Positions 455-31,719 of a stretch of 36,469 nt of DNA are shown piece after piece (the first letter of the stretch is position 1; each line of letters starts with the position of its first letter). The translations under genes were made by a program, and so were the position numbers. The notes beneath the pieces were generated by a model, which did not search any database, had not been told where the DNA came from, and saw only the letters and a program-made list of their open reading frames with translations. Origin of the DNA: a virus (Duplodnaviria > Heunggongvirae > Uroviricota > Caudoviricetes); IMG/VR virus record IMGVR_UViG_2724679138_000003; one strand, 5' to 3'.

Positions 455-3400
455 TCAGCTGATACTGATGCCTGCGGTGGCTTTCTTCATCACCACAACC
501 AGCAAATCGCTGATACTTGCTGTGGGATACCAGTCATTTACCAGCCATGATGACACCGAAAACTCCAGCGTCATGTGGCCGCGACCAGCTGGCATATCAA
601 TAACACCACTGTAAATCAGCGTATTATCCAGCGCGGTACGGTTATAAATTTCAGCACCGTTTTTCCGTACTATCAGGCGGCATGACGAATAAATATCGTT
701 ATTCTCCCTCTCATGTTTAGCGCCGCTGAATGCCACCGCCGGAATAACAATCTGCCGGTCAAACGGCTGATCGTCATAAACCCTGACGGTGATGGTCCCT
801 GATGGCCACCGTTCCGGTGCACGGGAGTCCCGGGGGAAAGCTTTGCCCACTGTTTTAACGAGATCGCCTTCAATCTGGTTGGCGGACAGTTTTCCCAGAA
901 CCCGACAGTTCTCGTTAATCGTGACGTTGTTGAGCGTCCCGGAGTTCGCATTCACGTTACCGCTGATATCGGCATTTTTCGCCGTCAGCCGCCCGTCCGG
1001 TGTCAGGGAAAATACCGGAGGATTACCGCCGCTGGTAATGGTGGGAGCCGTCAGGCGTTTCAGGAACACGTCGTTCATGAATATCTGATCGCCCTGCCCA
1101 ACAAACATCGGCTTTGTGTTGCCATTCGCAGGATTAATCATCGCAATCCTGTCTGCCGCCAGCAGCACCTGACTCTGCATGCCGTCAGGGGTGTTCTCAA
1201 TACCGGCACCAATACCCGCGATATAAAGGCGTCCGTCCTGCATCTGCTGCAGCTTCACAGCCCACATGCTGTTCAGGTTATTATTTGTATCAACCTGAAC
1301 CTTCTGTATCTGCTGAATTGCCGCACTCTGGTCTTCCAGTTTCTTATTGACGGTCTGCGTGATTTCATTGCTGACATCCGTAATGGACGTCCTGATTTCA
1401 GCCAGGTCAGGCGCAAGCTGACCGTTATCAATCTGCGTCCACAGCTCCTGAGCCAGATGGGTTTTCCCTATCTCGCCTTTGAAAAAATCCAGATAGCCGG
1501 ATGCGTCATCACTCGGCTGACCAACAGCCTCCACGAATGCCGATTTGCCAACGGTGTTCACACTGCGAACGTAAAAATAATAATTATGGCCCGGCCTGAT
1601 ATTGATACTGGCGGCTATCCAGTACAGCGCCGTGCCAAGATAGCGTGCTGTGGTTTCAACCTGCCTGATATCCGCAATCCGCTTTTCCGAGAACCAGAAC
1701 TCAAACTGTACCGTCGGATCATAAACCGCAAGATGCGGCGTGGCGGTTATCTGAAAATAGCCCGGCGTCAGCTCAATCCGCGACGGCGCTGCCGGTGCGG
1801 CAATCCGGAACGATACCGACGCCGGATCGCCCTGCTGCCCCCACGCATTTACTGCCCGGACTGTCAGCCTGTAGTTCCCCAGCGCCAGTTGTGTGAAGCA
1901 GTAAGTGGTTTCCGTCGTCCGGGCCGTGCTGACCAGCCGCTCACTGCCGTCATCCGCTGCCACGGTCAGGCGAAGCAGGAAGCTCACGCCCTTCACCACC
2001 TTCGGCGTGTCCCAGCGCGCCAGCACCTGATATTCCCCGCTGTCTGCGGTGACTTCTGCGGTCAGGTGCTGCACCGCTGGCGGCGTGACACCGTTCACCG
2101 TGCCACTCTGTTCGCCGTCAAAGTGCGCCCCGTTATCCACGATGGCTTCTTTTTCCGGTACATGCTGCACGGCGGTGATGGCATACGTGCCGCCGTCGTT
2201 CTCACGGATACTCACGCAGCGGAACAGGCGCTGGCGCAGCGTCGGCAGCTTCAGCCCCCACACGCTGTATTCAGCAACACCGTCAGGAACACGGCTCACT
2301 TTCACCTTCACGCCGTCGGTGACGGACTGAACCTCCACGCTGACCGGATTGCCACTTCCGTCAACCAGGCTTATCAGCGTGGTACCGGAGGATGGCAGCG
2401 TGATTTCACGGTCGAGCGTCAGCGTCCGGGTCTGGCTGTTTACCGCCAGCACGCGCCCGCCGGTGCTGATACCGGCATAGTCATCATCGCAGATTTCAAT
2501 GACATCGCCCGGTACATGGCGAAGCCCTTCTGCGCCGACGCTGAAATCCACGGTCTGCGTTTCCAGCAGTTCTGTTTTAATCAGCCACAGCCCGGCGCGG
2601 TGCGCCTGCCCCCGGCTGGTACAGCCAAAGGCATCCATCTTCGTGACGTTACGACCGTAACGGGCAATGGCCTGCGTATCTTCAACAAGCTCTGTCGCCG
2701 TCTCCCAGCCGTTGTTCGGGTCAATCCAGTTCACCTCAACGGCATTATGGCGGTCCTTCAGGGCGCTGAAGCTGTAGCGGAACGGCGCGCCATCATCCGG
2801 CATCACCACATTACTGCGGTTATAGGTCCACACCTTATCTGATGGTCGGTCCTGCACGAACGTCAGCGTCTGCCCGTTCCATACCGGCATACAGCGCATC
2901 GCCGAGCAGAAATCACTGAGCACATCCCACGCCTTACGCTGCGTGGTCAGGTAGGCATTACAGGTGATGCGCGGCTCCGTGCCGCCAAAACCGTCCGGCA
3001 CCGACTGGTCGCAGTACTGGCCGATGACATACAGCGCCCATTTATCCACATCTGCCGCACCAAGACGTTTCCCCATGCCGTAGCGCGGATGGGTCAGCAT
3101 ATCCCACAGACACCAGGCCATGTTGTTGCTGTATGCTGGCTTAAACGTTCCGTCCCAGATACCGCTGTATTGCCGCGTCTGCGGGTTATAGTTCGACGGC
3201 ACCTGCAGAATGCGCCCGCGCAGATGATAATTACGGCTCACCTGCTGGCTGCCGAACTGCTCCGAGTCCACCTGCACGCCGACCAGTGCCGTGTTCGGGT
3301 AGCACTGTTTCACATCGATAATTTCGGTGTATGACGACCAGAGCGTTTTGTTCTGCAGCTGGTCTGTGGTGCTGTCCGGCGTCATCCTGCGCATCCGGAT

Positions 3401-3934
3401 ATTAAACGGGCGCGGCGGCAGGTTATCCACCACCACCGAGGCCAGATACTGTGAAGTGGTTTTGCCCTTAATGGTGATGTCTTTTTCTGTCACCCAGCCA
3501 CCGTTACGTTGTATCTGAACCAGCAGGCGGACTTCCGACGGATTCCTGTCCCCCTTTGAGGTGGTTTCCACCAGTGCCTGCACACCGAAGGTAAAGCGCA
3601 GACGGTCGATATTTGCAGACGTGATGGTCCGGGTGATCGGCGTGTCATATTTCACTTCCGTACCCAGCACCGTCTCGGAGCCGGAGGATTCAAATCCCTC
3701 CGGCGGAGTCTGCTCCTGCTCACCTGCCCGGAACACCACCGTGACACCGGAGATGTTGGTATTCCCCTCAGTGTCCAGCACCGGCGTACTGTTCAGCAGC
3801 ACGCTTTTTAATCCATCCACCGGACCTTCAATCGGCCCTTCACTGATGGCATCAATCACACTCAGCAACTGCGTGGATTTCAGGTTGTCCTTCGCTTCGC
3901 GCGGGGTATGCCCCTTACTGCTGCCTTTACCCAT
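455..3934 (-). CDS. J: Tail tip / host-specificity protein J
   Basis: 1159-aa ORF. N-terminus [58 protein letters not shown]... matches lambda J as recalled; fibronectin-like central region; position after I. Confidence 0.92.
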
Positions 3935-23833: not shown

Positions 23834-24112
23834 TTACCTCCAGATGCGTTGCTGGAATGTACGGGACGGACGCGGTGGGCGTTCGGAGTAAGGCAATCTG
23901 ACTGAGATTATCCAGTGACGGTAGTCGAGACTAAGAGCTTTCTTAACCTCGTATCCGCGCCTGCGGTAACACTGAATTATCCATTCAGCCTGCTCTTCAG
24001 TGCATGGAGGGTGCTGGAACCATTCAGACTTGAATGCGTGAGAATACCGCTCGTGCGTGCAGGCAAGAACGGGCGAATTATCAGAATTGTAATATTTTAC
24101 GTTGCGTGCCAT
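23834..24112 (-). CDS. Hypothetical nin-region protein (Cys/His-containing, 92 aa)
   Basis: ATG 24112 with GGAG upstream; ...LACTHERYSHAF...HPPCTEEQAEWIIQCYRRRG; tightly packed before ydfU. Confidence 0.5.
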   Translation of the reverse strand: MARNVKYYNSDNSPVLACTHERYSHAFKSEWFQHPPCTEEQAEWIIQCYRRRGYEVKKALSLDYRHWIISVRLPYSERPPRPSRTFQQRIWR

Positions 24113-24658: not shown

Positions 24659-24814
24659 TTACTCCTCAGGTTCGTAAGCTGTGAAGACAGCGACCTCCGT
24701 CTGGCCGGTTCGGATTCGTACCTCGCAAAGGTCTTTCCTCGTTACCAGTGCCGTCACTATGACGGTTAAACAGATGACGATCAGGGCGATTAACATCGCC
24801 TTTTGCTGCTTCAT
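24659..24814 (-). CDS. hokD: Hok/Gef-family type I toxin (HokD/RelF-like)
   Basis: 51 aa, MKQQKAMLIALIVICLTVIVTALVTRKDLCEVRIRTGQTEVAVFTAYEPEE: N-terminal TM helix and conserved Hok C-terminus; matches K-12 HokD as recalled. Confidence 0.85.
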   Translation of the reverse strand: MKQQKAMLIALIVICLTVIVTALVTRKDLCEVRIRTGQTEVAVFTAYEPEE

Positions 24815-25279
24815 AGCCTGCTTCTCCTTGCCTTTCGGCACGTAAGAGGCTAACCTACATGTGTCTAGCATGAAATTGGCCTCAGATTAATGTTAAGCGT
24901 CTTGCAGGACGCGTAATGTTAACTGGGGCTTTTCTCTATCTGCCGTTGGTGTTCATGCCCGAGGCAGATAGCCTCAAGCACCCGCAGTCATTCTACTTAA
25001 CTACCGTTACCTCGCCAATGTGAAATCAGTCAGAAAGGCGATCCATAAGAACAATAGCAAGACAATAAATCGCCATTACAGCCGTAATAGCCAGCGCACA
25101 TTTGAGAACCAGCACCACAACCTCCTGTATTGGACGTACACCAGTCCTGATGAATATGAGGCTGTCTCGTCAGTGATTCAATACAACTATTGGGTATAGT
25201 TTCTCTGATTTTTTCTGTGGAAATGGGGCTCAACCACTAGTCATTTAATACGCAAAGTCCGACACAAGCTAACCTTCTA

Positions 25280-25303: not shown

Positions 25304-25623
25304 CTTGTGTAAAAATCCCCATACCGGTTGATCGCGCTGAATGTTAGGTTCATAAACGACACAGGGTACATCGTAATGCTGCTCTATTGCTTCGTAAGTG
25401 ATTCCCAATCGCTGCATCACTCGCTGAGAAGGAGTTCGACAACAGCCACTAAATAGTTGTGCATAGAGAACGACTGGAAAAGGCCGTAGGAACTTACAAA
25501 TCTCAATTCACGGTAGAGTATGATATGGGTATTCAATATAAATACAGCCCTCAAAGGTTTAAATATGAACGGAAGTGTTAAAAACAATCTATCGTCAAAA
25601 AAGTACAAGCTAAAAGAAAAATT

Positions 25624-25911
25624 TTGAATTTGAATCGCGAGCTTTCTAATGGAAAGATCACTCAGGCTGATTATTGTCTATACAAAAAACTGTTTGAAGA
25701 CTACATTCAGGTATTAACATTTCAACACACAAGAATTTTTGTGGAAAAAGATTTAATAGAACTATCAAATCATCGAAGTGGAGTATTCATTACAACTCAG
25801 CATGATACATTAGTAAATAGACTTGACAAAATTGATTATGAAATTGACAGATTAAAAAACTGTTTAAATAAAAAAATTATCGATTACACAAAATTCACAT
25901 CCCTATATTAG
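25624..25911 (+). CDS. Questionable AT-rich ORF (95 codons, no in-frame ATG)
   Basis: Track ORF starts at TTG with no SD. A 20-codon ATG ORF with SD (25565-25627) sits upstream in another frame and ends in A-runs. May be a frameshifted gene or non-coding. Confidence 0.25.
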   Translation: MNLNRELSNGKITQADYCLYKKLFEDYIQVLTFQHTRIFVEKDLIELSNHRSGVFITTQHDTLVNRLDKIDYEIDRLKNCLNKKIIDYTKFTSLY

Positions 25912-26004
25912 GATTTTCTAAGAGTACGACACCGTCACATTTAAATATTATTTGTAGAGGTAAAATGACAGCCTGACGGCGGTATTTCATTGCGAAATGC
26001 TATT

Positions 26005-26027
26005 TAAAAGACCGCATTGAGCGGTCT
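26005..26027 (-). terminator. Hairpin terminator downstream of the island ORF pair
   Basis: Minus-strand AGACCGC-tcaat-GCGGTCT followed by TTTAAAT; about 40 nt past the TAG stop at 26064. Confidence 0.5.
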
Positions 26028-26063
26028 TATGTATCTCACAACATATTACAGAATGACTTTAAA

Positions 26064-26819
26064 CTATTGTTTTAATAACATTTCAAAATCCTCATTCCAG
26101 TGCGTGTTTTGTGAAATACGGGTATCAATTTCATCAAGCAGCATATCATGAGAAAGTATGCTTAAAGGGTCATTCCCATTTTTACCAAAACGCATCGTAG
26201 TTTCTGCTATTTCCCAATCTTCTGCGCTGATTGATGGCTGTATTGCATGGCAGTAGATAGCCTTCACATCCTTTTCATGACAGTCAAAATTATTGATGCT
26301 TTCTGCAATTTTACGAGCTCTTTCAATTTCGACAACTGGACCATGTAAAGTTTCATATGATATATGCACAATTGTAGGGGTATTATCTGGAACCTGTCGT
26401 ACCGCTTTGCTTAAGTGCGTTTTAATATCTTTTGCTTTTTTATTAATCGATTCCTCTGCTATACATTCCCAACGAGCACAGTAACCAGAGTGTATTCCAG
26501 TGCAAAAAATGTTAAGTATATCAACACCGTCGTCCGGACCTACTCGTACAAGTCCTTTTGGGGCACAAAGATGAGTGTAATTTTCGCTGCTGCTAAAACT
26601 TCCGGCCAACAACGAAACCATCTGTGGAGAGTTCCATTTAACCATGTATTTATCAAAATGCTCATTGATATTTTTCATATCTATTCTATTAATCAGTATT
26701 ATAATTTCATCATTTTCTATTCTCAGTGACTTTCTCGTCGAGATATTAGACTTTATTTCATTGAAGATTTTTGCTAAAATATATTCATCTGTATCTTTTA
26801 CTTCAACCTTGAAAAGCAC
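26064..26819 (-). CDS. Island ORF B (251 codons), unknown function; possibly the C-terminal part of a gene split by a TAA
   Basis: Same frame as ORF A with only one TAA (26886-26888) and 22 sense codons between them; no ATG or SD of its own (track start is GTG 26819); AT-rich codon usage. Confidence 0.5.
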   Translation of the reverse strand: MLFKVEVKDTDEYILAKIFNEIKSNISTRKSLRIENDEIIILINRIDMKNINEHFDKYMVKWNSPQMVSLLAGSFSSSENYTHLCAPKGLVRVGPDDGVDILNIFCTGIHSGYCARWECIAEESINKKAKDIKTHLSKAVRQVPDNTPTIVHISYETLHGPVVEIERARKIAESINNFDCHEKDVKAIYCHAIQPSISAEDWEIAETTMRFGKNGNDPLSILSHDMLLDEIDTRISQNTHWNEDFEMLLKQ

Positions 26820-26885
26820 GTCTAAAAATATGTTTTGTCTAGACTGAGTTAGAATAGGTACTAAATTGAGCCATCTTTGCCTCCA

Positions 26886-27518
26886 TTATCGACGCTCATT
26901 TTCAGAATATTCAGTCACTTTAGATAAACGCTTACATTCCACAAAAAAGCTTTCTTCACCTTTAGTAACTTTTAAATCAGGAGTTTTATTTAATGCTGTT
27001 TCTGGAATAAATTCTACTCTATAACCATTGCGCGCATACATAATCGCAACAACTAATTCAAACAATGTTGAATCAGGTTGATTTATTTTACCGTTAAGAA
27101 ATTCCGAAAGTTTTTCATCAATCCCAACAATTTTTTTTGCAAGCTCAATATGTCTTCCAACAGCCGCAAAAAAGGGAAATACTCGGGCTGATTGCGCTAA
27201 CTCGCTAACTAAAGGCCGTTCATGTAAGCATTCTACAAGAAAAAGATACCATGCAACCCAATCCTCATGAAATGCCACCCTATTTTTTGGCTCTTCCATA
27301 CTCTTCATTGCTTGGTCAAAATTCTTATAGGTGTTATCTTCCTGTTCTCTGAAGTACTTGACTACATTTTTTTTGCGAGTCTCCCAAGTATCCTTTTCCA
27401 GATAAGATAAAAACCAGTCCAATGCAATTTTCGTATGATGATGCCAGGGACTGGTATCCGTTGCTGCAAAAATCTCTTGTAGTTCTTTTGAATATTCCAA
27501 TGTCTGTGTGTTAGCCAT
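26886..27518 (-). CDS. Island ORF A (210 aa), unknown function with C-terminal PD-(D/E)xK-like motif
   Basis: ATG 27518 with GAGG 6 nt upstream; C-terminal ...LFELVVAIMYARNGYRVEFIPETALNKTPDLKVTKGEESFFVECKRL has helix-E, PD, and hydrophobic-ExK spacing typical of the restriction-endonuclease fold. Confidence 0.6.
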   Translation of the reverse strand: MANTQTLEYSKELQEIFAATDTSPWHHHTKIALDWFLSYLEKDTWETRKKNVVKYFREQEDNTYKNFDQAMKSMEEPKNRVAFHEDWVAWYLFLVECLHERPLVSELAQSARVFPFFAAVGRHIELAKKIVGIDEKLSEFLNGKINQPDSTLFELVVAIMYARNGYRVEFIPETALNKTPDLKVTKGEESFFVECKRLSKVTEYSENERR

Positions 27519-27768
27519 TTTGACCTCATCATTGTTAATTTATGAGATTTTACAACTTATAATGCATCTTCCAGATCGAGCCTCCAAGTAAGAAATCAGG
27601 CTAAATCAGACAGATATGTAATATATCCCTAGTCAATTAGGCAGTCCACCCATAAATCCTAACAGTACGAAAATGGTTGGAACGTTATCCTAGGTTACTG
27701 CTCATCGTTTCCTTATGACCTCAATATATAAATATCCCAGCTCTTGCGGTTCGATTGTATGATTGACA

Positions 27769-27889: not shown

Positions 27890-28291
27890 TTATCCCTGAT
27901 AAAATGCCAGTATGCGCTGCATAACTTCACTCATCCGGCACTCGCGACAGATTATGTTTAGGCGACTGTCGTAGCGACGTATTTCTCCATCAGGTAACGA
28001 CCAGATAAGGTCCGGATCAACCACAGCTGTTTTCTTCACCTTTGCCCTCGATAGTTTTTTGCGGGCGTTTTGCCAGTCCTTACGCGCCTGTTCAGACGGG
28101 AATAACCCGTAGCCGGAGTTGTATACATCGCCACTGGCTACCAGCTCTCTGGCAAGAACGCTCATCAGATATCTAGTCGCACCTGTTTTAGCTTCCAGTT
28201 GCCGTAACGTCTCACGACCACTCTGGCGCACGAGTTCCACCACCTGCCCTTTAATTTTTTCCCGCTCTTCTTGTGTAAAAACTTTTGCCAC
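27890..28291 (-). CDS. Hypothetical protein downstream of replication initiator (133 aa)
   Basis: GTG start at 28291 with GGGGG upstream; occupies the slot where lambda P (helicase loader) would sit but is far too small to be P or DnaC. Confidence 0.45.
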   Translation of the reverse strand: MAKVFTQEEREKIKGQVVELVRQSGRETLRQLEAKTGATRYLMSVLARELVASGDVYNSGYGLFPSEQARKDWQNARKKLSRAKVKKTAVVDPDLIWSLPDGEIRRYDSRLNIICRECRMSEVMQRILAFYQG

Positions 28292-31661: not shown

Positions 31662-31719
31662 TTTCTGGTGACGTTTGGCGGTATCAGTTTTACTCCGTGA
31701 CTGCTCTGCCGCCGTTTTT
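31662..31719 (+). ncRNA. dicF: DicF small regulatory RNA
   Basis: TTTCTGGTGACGTTTGGCGGTATCAGTTTTACTCCGTGACTGCTCTGCCGCCG followed by TTTTT; matches the K-12 DicF sequence as recalled (one mismatch at the 3' end); sits between ydfC-position gene and dicB. Confidence 0.8.

Follow-up and report, generated by a model that had tools for sequence, protein, structure and literature searches.

A prophage-borne gene for a predicted PD-(D/E)xK nuclease, interrupted by a nonsense codon, and its possible role in defense when intact

In the window, by which we mean the whole 36,469-nt stretch of DNA analyzed here (IMG/VR record IMGVR_UViG_2724679138_000003), two adjoining open reading frames, ORF A and ORF B, are very probably the two halves of one gene for a nuclease that is broken in the window strain. 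Taken as a whole, the explanation that we favor, and consider likely to be right, is that of a broken PD-(D/E)xK gene carried as cargo by a lambdoid prophage, the product of which would act as a defense nuclease when intact. The intact protein of 484 aa would consist of a helical N-terminal domain, a central nuclease, and a C-terminal alpha/beta region, with Glu154 (helix 1), Asp181 (before strand 2), and Glu194-x-Lys196 (strand 3) as its putative catalytic center. The G-to-T change that turns Glu211 into TAA would cut the second core helix and drop the fourth strand together with the C-terminal region.

One gene with an internal stop codon

When 26064..27518 was translated in a single frame, ORF A and ORF B were found to share that frame, with TAA at 26886-26888 as the sole internal stop. 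The parts of the gene are as follows:

26064..27518, minus strand: whole gene, 484 codons plus stop in a single frame, with a premature TAA at codon 211 (intact allele, WP_032341362.1)
27524..27527, minus strand: GAGG, Shine-Dalgarno-like, 5 nt upstream of the ATG at 27518 (read from the sequence)
26886..27518, minus strand: ORF A, 210 aa, residues 1-210 plus TAA, holding the N-terminal helical domain, alpha1, beta1-3, and the start of alpha2
26886..26888, minus strand: premature TAA, which is GAA (Glu211) in intact alleles; the changed base is plus-strand position 26888
26064..26885, minus strand: ORF B region, residues 212-484 plus the natural stop, holding the rest of alpha2, beta4, and the C-terminal alpha/beta region

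In Escherichia coli EC93, the gene is annotated as one 1455-nt CDS (484 aa, WP_032341362.1), the translation of which equals ORF A plus ORF B with Glu at position 211. The EC93 and window genes are identical at 1454/1455 nt, and the base in the stop codon is the sole difference from EC93 between window positions 24001 and 28600 (1 mismatch in 4600 nt), corresponding to a G-to-T change that converts GAA into TAA at Glu211. Since the two frames are the same, EC93 has GAA, and no other difference is seen in 4.6 kb, A and B are taken to be halves of one gene. The base is also G in strains JNE21-003 and 201609, and in 41 aligned homologues the residue at the TAA site, which lies beside an invariant W212, is a sense residue.

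In an exact-sequence look-up for the 210-aa product, GCA_001596855.1 was the sole source of a complete ORF, and it is the one draft assembly from which the nonsense codon is known; over 6633 nt, its contig LRAB01000031.1 matches the window at 100% identity. A 210-aa "product" also came from three short contigs of metagenome or run assemblies (L018, L019, and L020), which were considered as further nonsense alleles and rejected, as they are cut 0-2 nt from codon 210/211, and the two that reach the variable base both carry the wild-type G. Such contig-edge matches are probably found because an exact-sequence look-up selects genes that happen to be cut there.

The stop at codon 211 falls within core helix 203-226, before strand 230-236, which holds F236 (95% conserved), and residues 237-484 also lie downstream of it. 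ORF A thus retains E154, D181, E194, K196, and E208, and is left without half of the second helix and without the fourth strand. Because the predicted fold is cut in this way, the TAA allele is very unlikely to yield an active enzyme, and we regard the window allele as dead.

Two further changes at this locus were seen in other strains. The gene contains an A8 homopolymer (window 27131-27138, gene nt 381-388), which is A7 in E. coli O166:H15 JNE21-003, where this splits the gene into CDSs of 144 and 333 aa; the longer product of this frameshift allele is on record from three contigs and represents an independent second breakage of the gene. In strain 201609, an IS2 element sits ~75 nt upstream of the ATG (window ~27591-27596; 2289-3517 in locus L007), between the nuclease gene and the DUF977 gene, and the gene is otherwise intact. 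This IS2 could either block upstream transcription or supply a new promoter.

We read the split as a strain-specific nonsense mutation, a base-call error being less likely. If the stop were such an artifact, the strain would have GAA, the gene would be intact and active, and the TAA would be a consensus error of the draft assembly. The presence of the complete-ORF TAA allele in GCA_001596855.1 only, and the fact that its base is the one position that differs from EC93 in 4.6 kb, speak for this explanation. However, the consensus of an assembly seldom contains substitution errors, and the A7 frameshift allele (three contigs) and the upstream IS2 count against an artifact, since these independent inactivating or nearby changes in other strains make decay of the gene plausible; we consider an error unlikely.

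Programmed read-through or re-initiation, in which the TAA is decoded or bypassed to give a full-length or two-piece active nuclease, would fit the arrangement of A and B in one frame with a single stop between them, but is extremely improbable. The stop is not conserved among homologues, as it would be in a recoded or read-through gene, the codon being GAA in the intact E. coli alleles examined and a sense codon in the 41 aligned homologues. The TAA is followed by T, and in E. coli termination is most efficient in this context. As for re-initiation, the first in-frame start codon past the TAA is the GTG at 26819, listed as the start of ORF B, which is Val234 of the intact protein and lies inside core strand 4, so a restart product would be devoid of all catalytic residues. 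An earlier, sequence-only reading of this DNA had held that the fold would be completed only if translation continued into ORF B. The need for ORF B stands, as beta4 is encoded there, whereas translation across the stop does not, the stop being a nonsense codon. With the two "island ORFs" being one dead gene, no recoding or split-enzyme story is needed.

The predicted nuclease domain and its flanking regions

The same reading had placed a PD-(D/E)xK nuclease-like motif at 26900-27010, at the C-terminus of ORF A. Conservation among homologues and the predicted fold both support the motif, which is held in the peptide DSTLFELVVAIMYARNGYRVEFIPETALNKTPDLKVTKGEESFFVECKRLSKV (residues 149-201 of ORF A; window 27074..26916, minus strand). 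The domains and motif residues are as follows:

27084..27518, minus strand: N-terminal all-helical domain, about residues 1-145 (model secondary structure and conservation)
26733..27083, minus strand: PD-(D/E)xK nuclease domain, about residues 146-262, the C-terminal boundary being an estimate
27057..27059, minus strand: Glu154, core helix alpha1, conserved in 183 of 183 full-length members
26979-26981, minus strand: codon of Pro180, of the PD
26976..26978, minus strand: Asp181, of the PD, directly before strand 182-186 in the model; 181 of 183 members, the other two having Glu
26931..26939, minus strand: Glu194-Cys195-Lys196, the ExK, on strand 189-197 in the model (E194 codon, 26937-26939; K196 codon, 26931-26933); E in 182 and K in 182 of the 183 members
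26067..26732, minus strand: C-terminal alpha/beta region, about residues 263-484; holds another near-invariant cluster

The PD and the ExK therefore lie within the range first given, on the minus strand, and the helix Glu lies outside it. Glu194 comes 13 residues after Asp181, close to the "about 14" that had been stated, and the stop of ORF A comes 14 residues after Lys196 rather than 13. Nor is the motif C-terminal: it belongs to the central domain of the 484-aa intact protein, and the end of ORF A is the premature stop.

As a pattern alone, the motif is not remarkable and constitutes weak evidence. In shuffles of ORF A, D..(D/E)xK occurred in 79%, PD..(D/E)xK in 6%, and the full E..PD..h(D/E)xK pattern in 2%; of the long six-frame ORFs that the window contains, 96 in all, two also had the full pattern. 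What raises the motif above chance level is the conservation of its four residues together with a confident fold and fold matches to PD-(D/E)xK nucleases. The sequence-only reading had named two checks, the conservation of D, E, and K among homologues and a structure prediction for a restriction-endonuclease-like fold. The residues proved to be essentially invariant and a canonical core was found around the motif, and these outcomes favor the nuclease reading.

We obtained an AlphaFold2 model from a 42-sequence alignment, with a mean pLDDT of 88.8 and a pTM of 0.89. Around the motif, the model has helix 148-163, strands 167-170, 182-186, and 189-197, helix 203-226, and strand 230-236, i.e., the alpha-beta-beta-beta-alpha-beta core of this nuclease fold, in which the Glu falls on helix 1, the Asp where strand 2 starts, and the ExK on strand 3. 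Fold matches were to PD-(D/E)xK nucleases, including Hjc; in a Foldseek search against the PDB, no match reached E <= 0.001, and Hjc entries were retrieved at probabilities of 0.4-0.77. Sequence searches of the PDB, whether started from the protein or from the family profile, returned nothing meaningful. The nearest Pfam family is Mrr_cat, matched over residues 151-200 at 14.5 bits with ORF A and 13.1-13.2 bits with the full protein, which is below the gathering cut-off of 21 and hence not a formal assignment. The Pfam families that recurred among members were Mrr_cat (10/42 of the aligned members and 14/103 of the distant ones, only at E 0.0025-0.1), Hjc (2 and 4), and NERD (1 and 1). The motif is thus predicted to be the catalytic center of an Mrr/Hjc-like PD-(D/E)xK nuclease domain.

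On the N-terminal side of the nuclease, the helical domain, which is helical throughout over about residues 10-145, has conserved positions at W45, R48, D86, W90, Y91, R112, P115, and G121. No Pfam match to this domain was obtained in the 42 + 103 members, and no solved relative was found. In the C-terminal region, for which a solved relative was likewise sought and none found, Q375 (0.99), H385 (0.99), E389 (0.96), R400 (0.92), and E439 (0.96) are near-invariant across the 183 members. A polar cluster made up of Q375, H385, E389, R400, K403, E439, and T440 is spread over residues 375-439 (window ~26202-26396), and could form a second catalytic or ligand-binding site. We also considered an internal duplication, in which the C-terminal part would be another nuclease fold that has degenerated; this was rejected when hhalign between the domain sub-alignments gave a probability below 1%. 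A domain for reading modified DNA, of the kind found in type IV (Mrr-kind) enzymes (Mrr_N winged helix, SRA, and similar), was not detected by Pfam in any of the 145 members.

A family of prophage and islet cargo

A word-indexed search returned 87 homologue clusters, 33-100% identical to the query and mostly 450-513 aa long, from many Gammaproteobacteria, one Desulfuromonadales genome, and several Bacteroidota. No Pfam domain was assigned in these 87 clusters, and nearly all are named hypothetical. A profile search of 1.84 billion representatives retrieved 1011 proteins at E <= 1e-3, 235 of them at E <= 1e-30, giving a family size of about 1000 clusters at 50% identity; among the 150 matches listed, most cover nearly the whole profile (about 430-470 aa). 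In the alignment of 42 full-length members, D149, E154, D181, E194, K196, R197, K200, and E208 are invariant. Among 103 members with 20-42% identity to the E. coli protein, E154 is the sole invariant column, and D181, E194, and K196 are conserved at >= 90%.

Within E. coli, the locus is present in 11 of 5426 complete genomes at >= 99.6% identity, and copies of >= 90% identity occur in Pectobacterium parvum and Yersinia intermedia. The protein matches PHROG 37220, a family with no named function, from end to end (E 2.1e-51; residues 29-477 aligned to positions 12-454 of the 461 in the profile). No match was found in NCBIfam, and PADLOC-DB v2.0 gave no whole-protein match to any system model, its weak local matches being to nuclease cores (PD-T7-5 at 1.4e-4 in 4 of 42 members, and ZorD at 1.2e-3). 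In the literature searched, no paper mentions WP_032341362 or phrog_37220, and the accession is absent from the DefensePredictor supplements.

The window itself is a lambdoid prophage, 99.7% identical to the one in EC93 over 97% of 25 kb. The gene lies in an insert that was delimited by blastn against mEp460_ev081 and by the GC profile:

25309..27768, no strand assigned: low-GC insert with the gene, GC 0.30-0.40 against about 0.5 in the flanks

In this mEp460-like lambdoid prophage, the insert occupies a slot between the DUF977 gene (27890..28291) and hok/sok. In the phage genomes compared, the flanks of the insert are present and the insert is absent, and the same slot is taken up in mEp460_ev081 by a different ORF, hypothetical and 449 aa long, that runs on the opposite strand, in HannyBb by a methyltransferase fragment with small ORFs, and in Evi by an acetyltransferase with a mobile-element protein. 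The stretch from DUF977 (LygF/"Ren-like") to hok/sok can be described as a variable cargo slot of mEp460-like lambdoid phages and may be a lambdoid counterpart of the P2/P4 hotspots.

Several other elements were noted in and around the insert. Its most AT-rich part (GC about 0.30) contains a 95-aa ORF with a TTG start (25624..25911, plus strand), convergent with the nuclease gene, which is not annotated in RefSeq and occurs only in near-identical E. coli copies of the insert. We considered this ORF as a partner gene and rejected it, since it is absent beside distant homologues. Promoter and terminator scans of the insert gave nothing above shuffled expectation. Between the gene and the 95-aa ORF, 36 nt downstream of the gene's natural stop, lies the inverted repeat aagaccgc-attga-gcggtctt (26008-26028), which resembles a two-way terminator hairpin and went unflagged in the consensus scan because its T run is short. 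Rfam placed the sok antitoxin RNA at 24809-24983 (minus strand), adjoining a hok-family ORF (24659..24871), and the DicF small RNA at 31663-31714 (plus strand); sok and DicF are typical of Qin/Rac-type lambdoid prophages.

The gene neighborhoods of seven homologues were as follows:

Pantoea homologue, 73% identity: in a P2-like prophage, with gpA on one side and the portal gene on the other
Cronobacter homologue: adjoining a P2/186-like integrase at a prophage edge
Vibrio fluvialis homologue: at the edge of an integrase element
Aeromonas homologue: in a small integrase islet between housekeeping genes
Enterovibrio homologue: in a prophage with DUF3800, an AAA_15/DUF2813 ATPase (OLD-like), and DUF4145
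JGI metagenome contig homologue: near AbiH, a methyltransferase, and DUF87
Olivibacter homologue: after a 1492-aa ORF

Relatives were also found on 20 IMG/VR viral contigs, many of which are about 32 kb long and carry the relative right at one end. No neighboring gene is conserved across the contexts examined. Neither in the window nor in the seven homologue contexts is a methyltransferase adjacent to the gene, as it would be in a type II restriction-modification system; the one methyltransferase seen in these contexts (locus L015) is 4.5 kb off, behind other genes. The gene is therefore an accessory, phage-borne, stand-alone piece of cargo.

Just upstream of the Pantoea homologue, in the P2 hotspot, a DUF4365 gene is paired with an overlapping gene of ~375 aa, and the element with the Vibrio homologue carries a distant version of this pair (26% identity in the DUF4365 part) ~5.5 kb away from the homologue (pair coordinates: 5198-6825 in L010, 13970-15512 in L013, and 9125-10667 in L014). 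The pair was considered as a partner and rejected, as it recurs in two contexts only; the two genes probably form a module of their own that is carried in loci of this type.

Proposed function and comparison with known systems

We propose that the intact protein would by itself be a Mg2+-dependent DNA endonuclease that guards the lysogen against other phages, with the flanking domains restraining or directing the nuclease. Since no cognate methyltransferase accompanies the gene, one of two routes of control would be expected: recognition of a feature of foreign DNA, as in type IV systems, or activation by a signal of infection, as in abortive infection. From sequence and context, the chances that the intact protein is a single-gene anti-phage nuclease are about evenly balanced. 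We put forward with somewhat more reserve the idea that it founds a new single-gene defense family in which the N- and C-terminal domains gate an Mrr/Hjc-like nuclease, and, equally tentatively, that this defense family spans Gammaproteobacteria, Bacteroidota, and others, in P2-like and lambdoid prophages and in integrase islets. The P2 gpA-gpQ slot is a hotspot of anti-phage systems (PMC9122126). The support that hotspot location lends to a defense role is circumstantial; hotspot slots also carry non-defense morons.

Two other roles for the intact protein were weighed against defense. It might serve DNA transactions of the prophage, such as recombination or junction resolution, in the manner of Hjc or of RusA of lambdoid nin regions, and this would agree with the presence of Hjc among the fold and Pfam matches and with a gene that adjoins the replication genes on the same strand. 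Yet nearly all related lambdoid prophages and phages lack the gene and carry unrelated cargo in the slot, and in small integrase islets and P2-like prophages its homologues sit at positions unrelated to this one. Moreover, Hjc is a stand-alone domain of roughly 120 aa that works as a dimer on four-way junctions, whereas about 370 extra conserved residues are present here, and we find such a role quite unlikely. We judge it very unlikely that the protein is instead a toxin that stabilizes the prophage as part of an addiction or toxin-antitoxin module, in the manner of hok/sok. A nuclease that could harm its own cell and has no adjacent methyltransferase, repeated inactivation of the gene, and the adjoining hok/sok would all suit a toxin, but no small partner is conserved, the 95-aa ORF being missing beside distant homologues, and the neighbors differ in every context examined.

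Defense by the intact protein remains the role that we prefer. The analysis flags a sizeable family with no Pfam, NCBIfam, or PADLOC assignment, a near-invariant nuclease site, two conserved flanking domains with no recognized fold relative, and a habit of occupying phage defense hotspots. If the intact allele, carried by EC93 and ten other complete genomes, restricts phages, a compact single-protein system would be added to those known, and the flanking domains would become two new candidate sensor domains; if it does not, the gene would be another prophage moron.

Compared with known systems, the protein is closest in fold and motif to the Mrr-type nucleases (PF04471; AF1548, PDB 1y88; the C-terminal nuclease of ZorD), with the Mrr_cat match staying below threshold. 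It differs from them in having no Mrr_N and in the central position of the nuclease, which is flanked by helical and alpha/beta regions of about 145 and about 220 residues, respectively. Relative to Hjc (PF01870; PDB 1gef, 1ob8, and 2wcw), the protein is four times larger and is variable prophage cargo. In Hachiman HamA, NucC, Can2/Card1, Shedu SduA, and PD-T7-5, a PD-(D/E)xK effector is likewise combined with sensor or regulatory domains, whereas here no helicase, CARF, or SAVED domain was detected and no partner gene is conserved. With the cargo of the P2 gpA-gpQ hotspot (old, tin; Rousset et al. 2022, PMC9122126), the family shares the slot itself, through the 73% identical Pantoea homologue, while the window gene resides in a lambdoid phage, in the slot from DUF977 to hok/sok. 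Together, these comparisons suggest that a known effector fold is used here in what appears, within the literature searched, to be an undescribed three-domain architecture and family.
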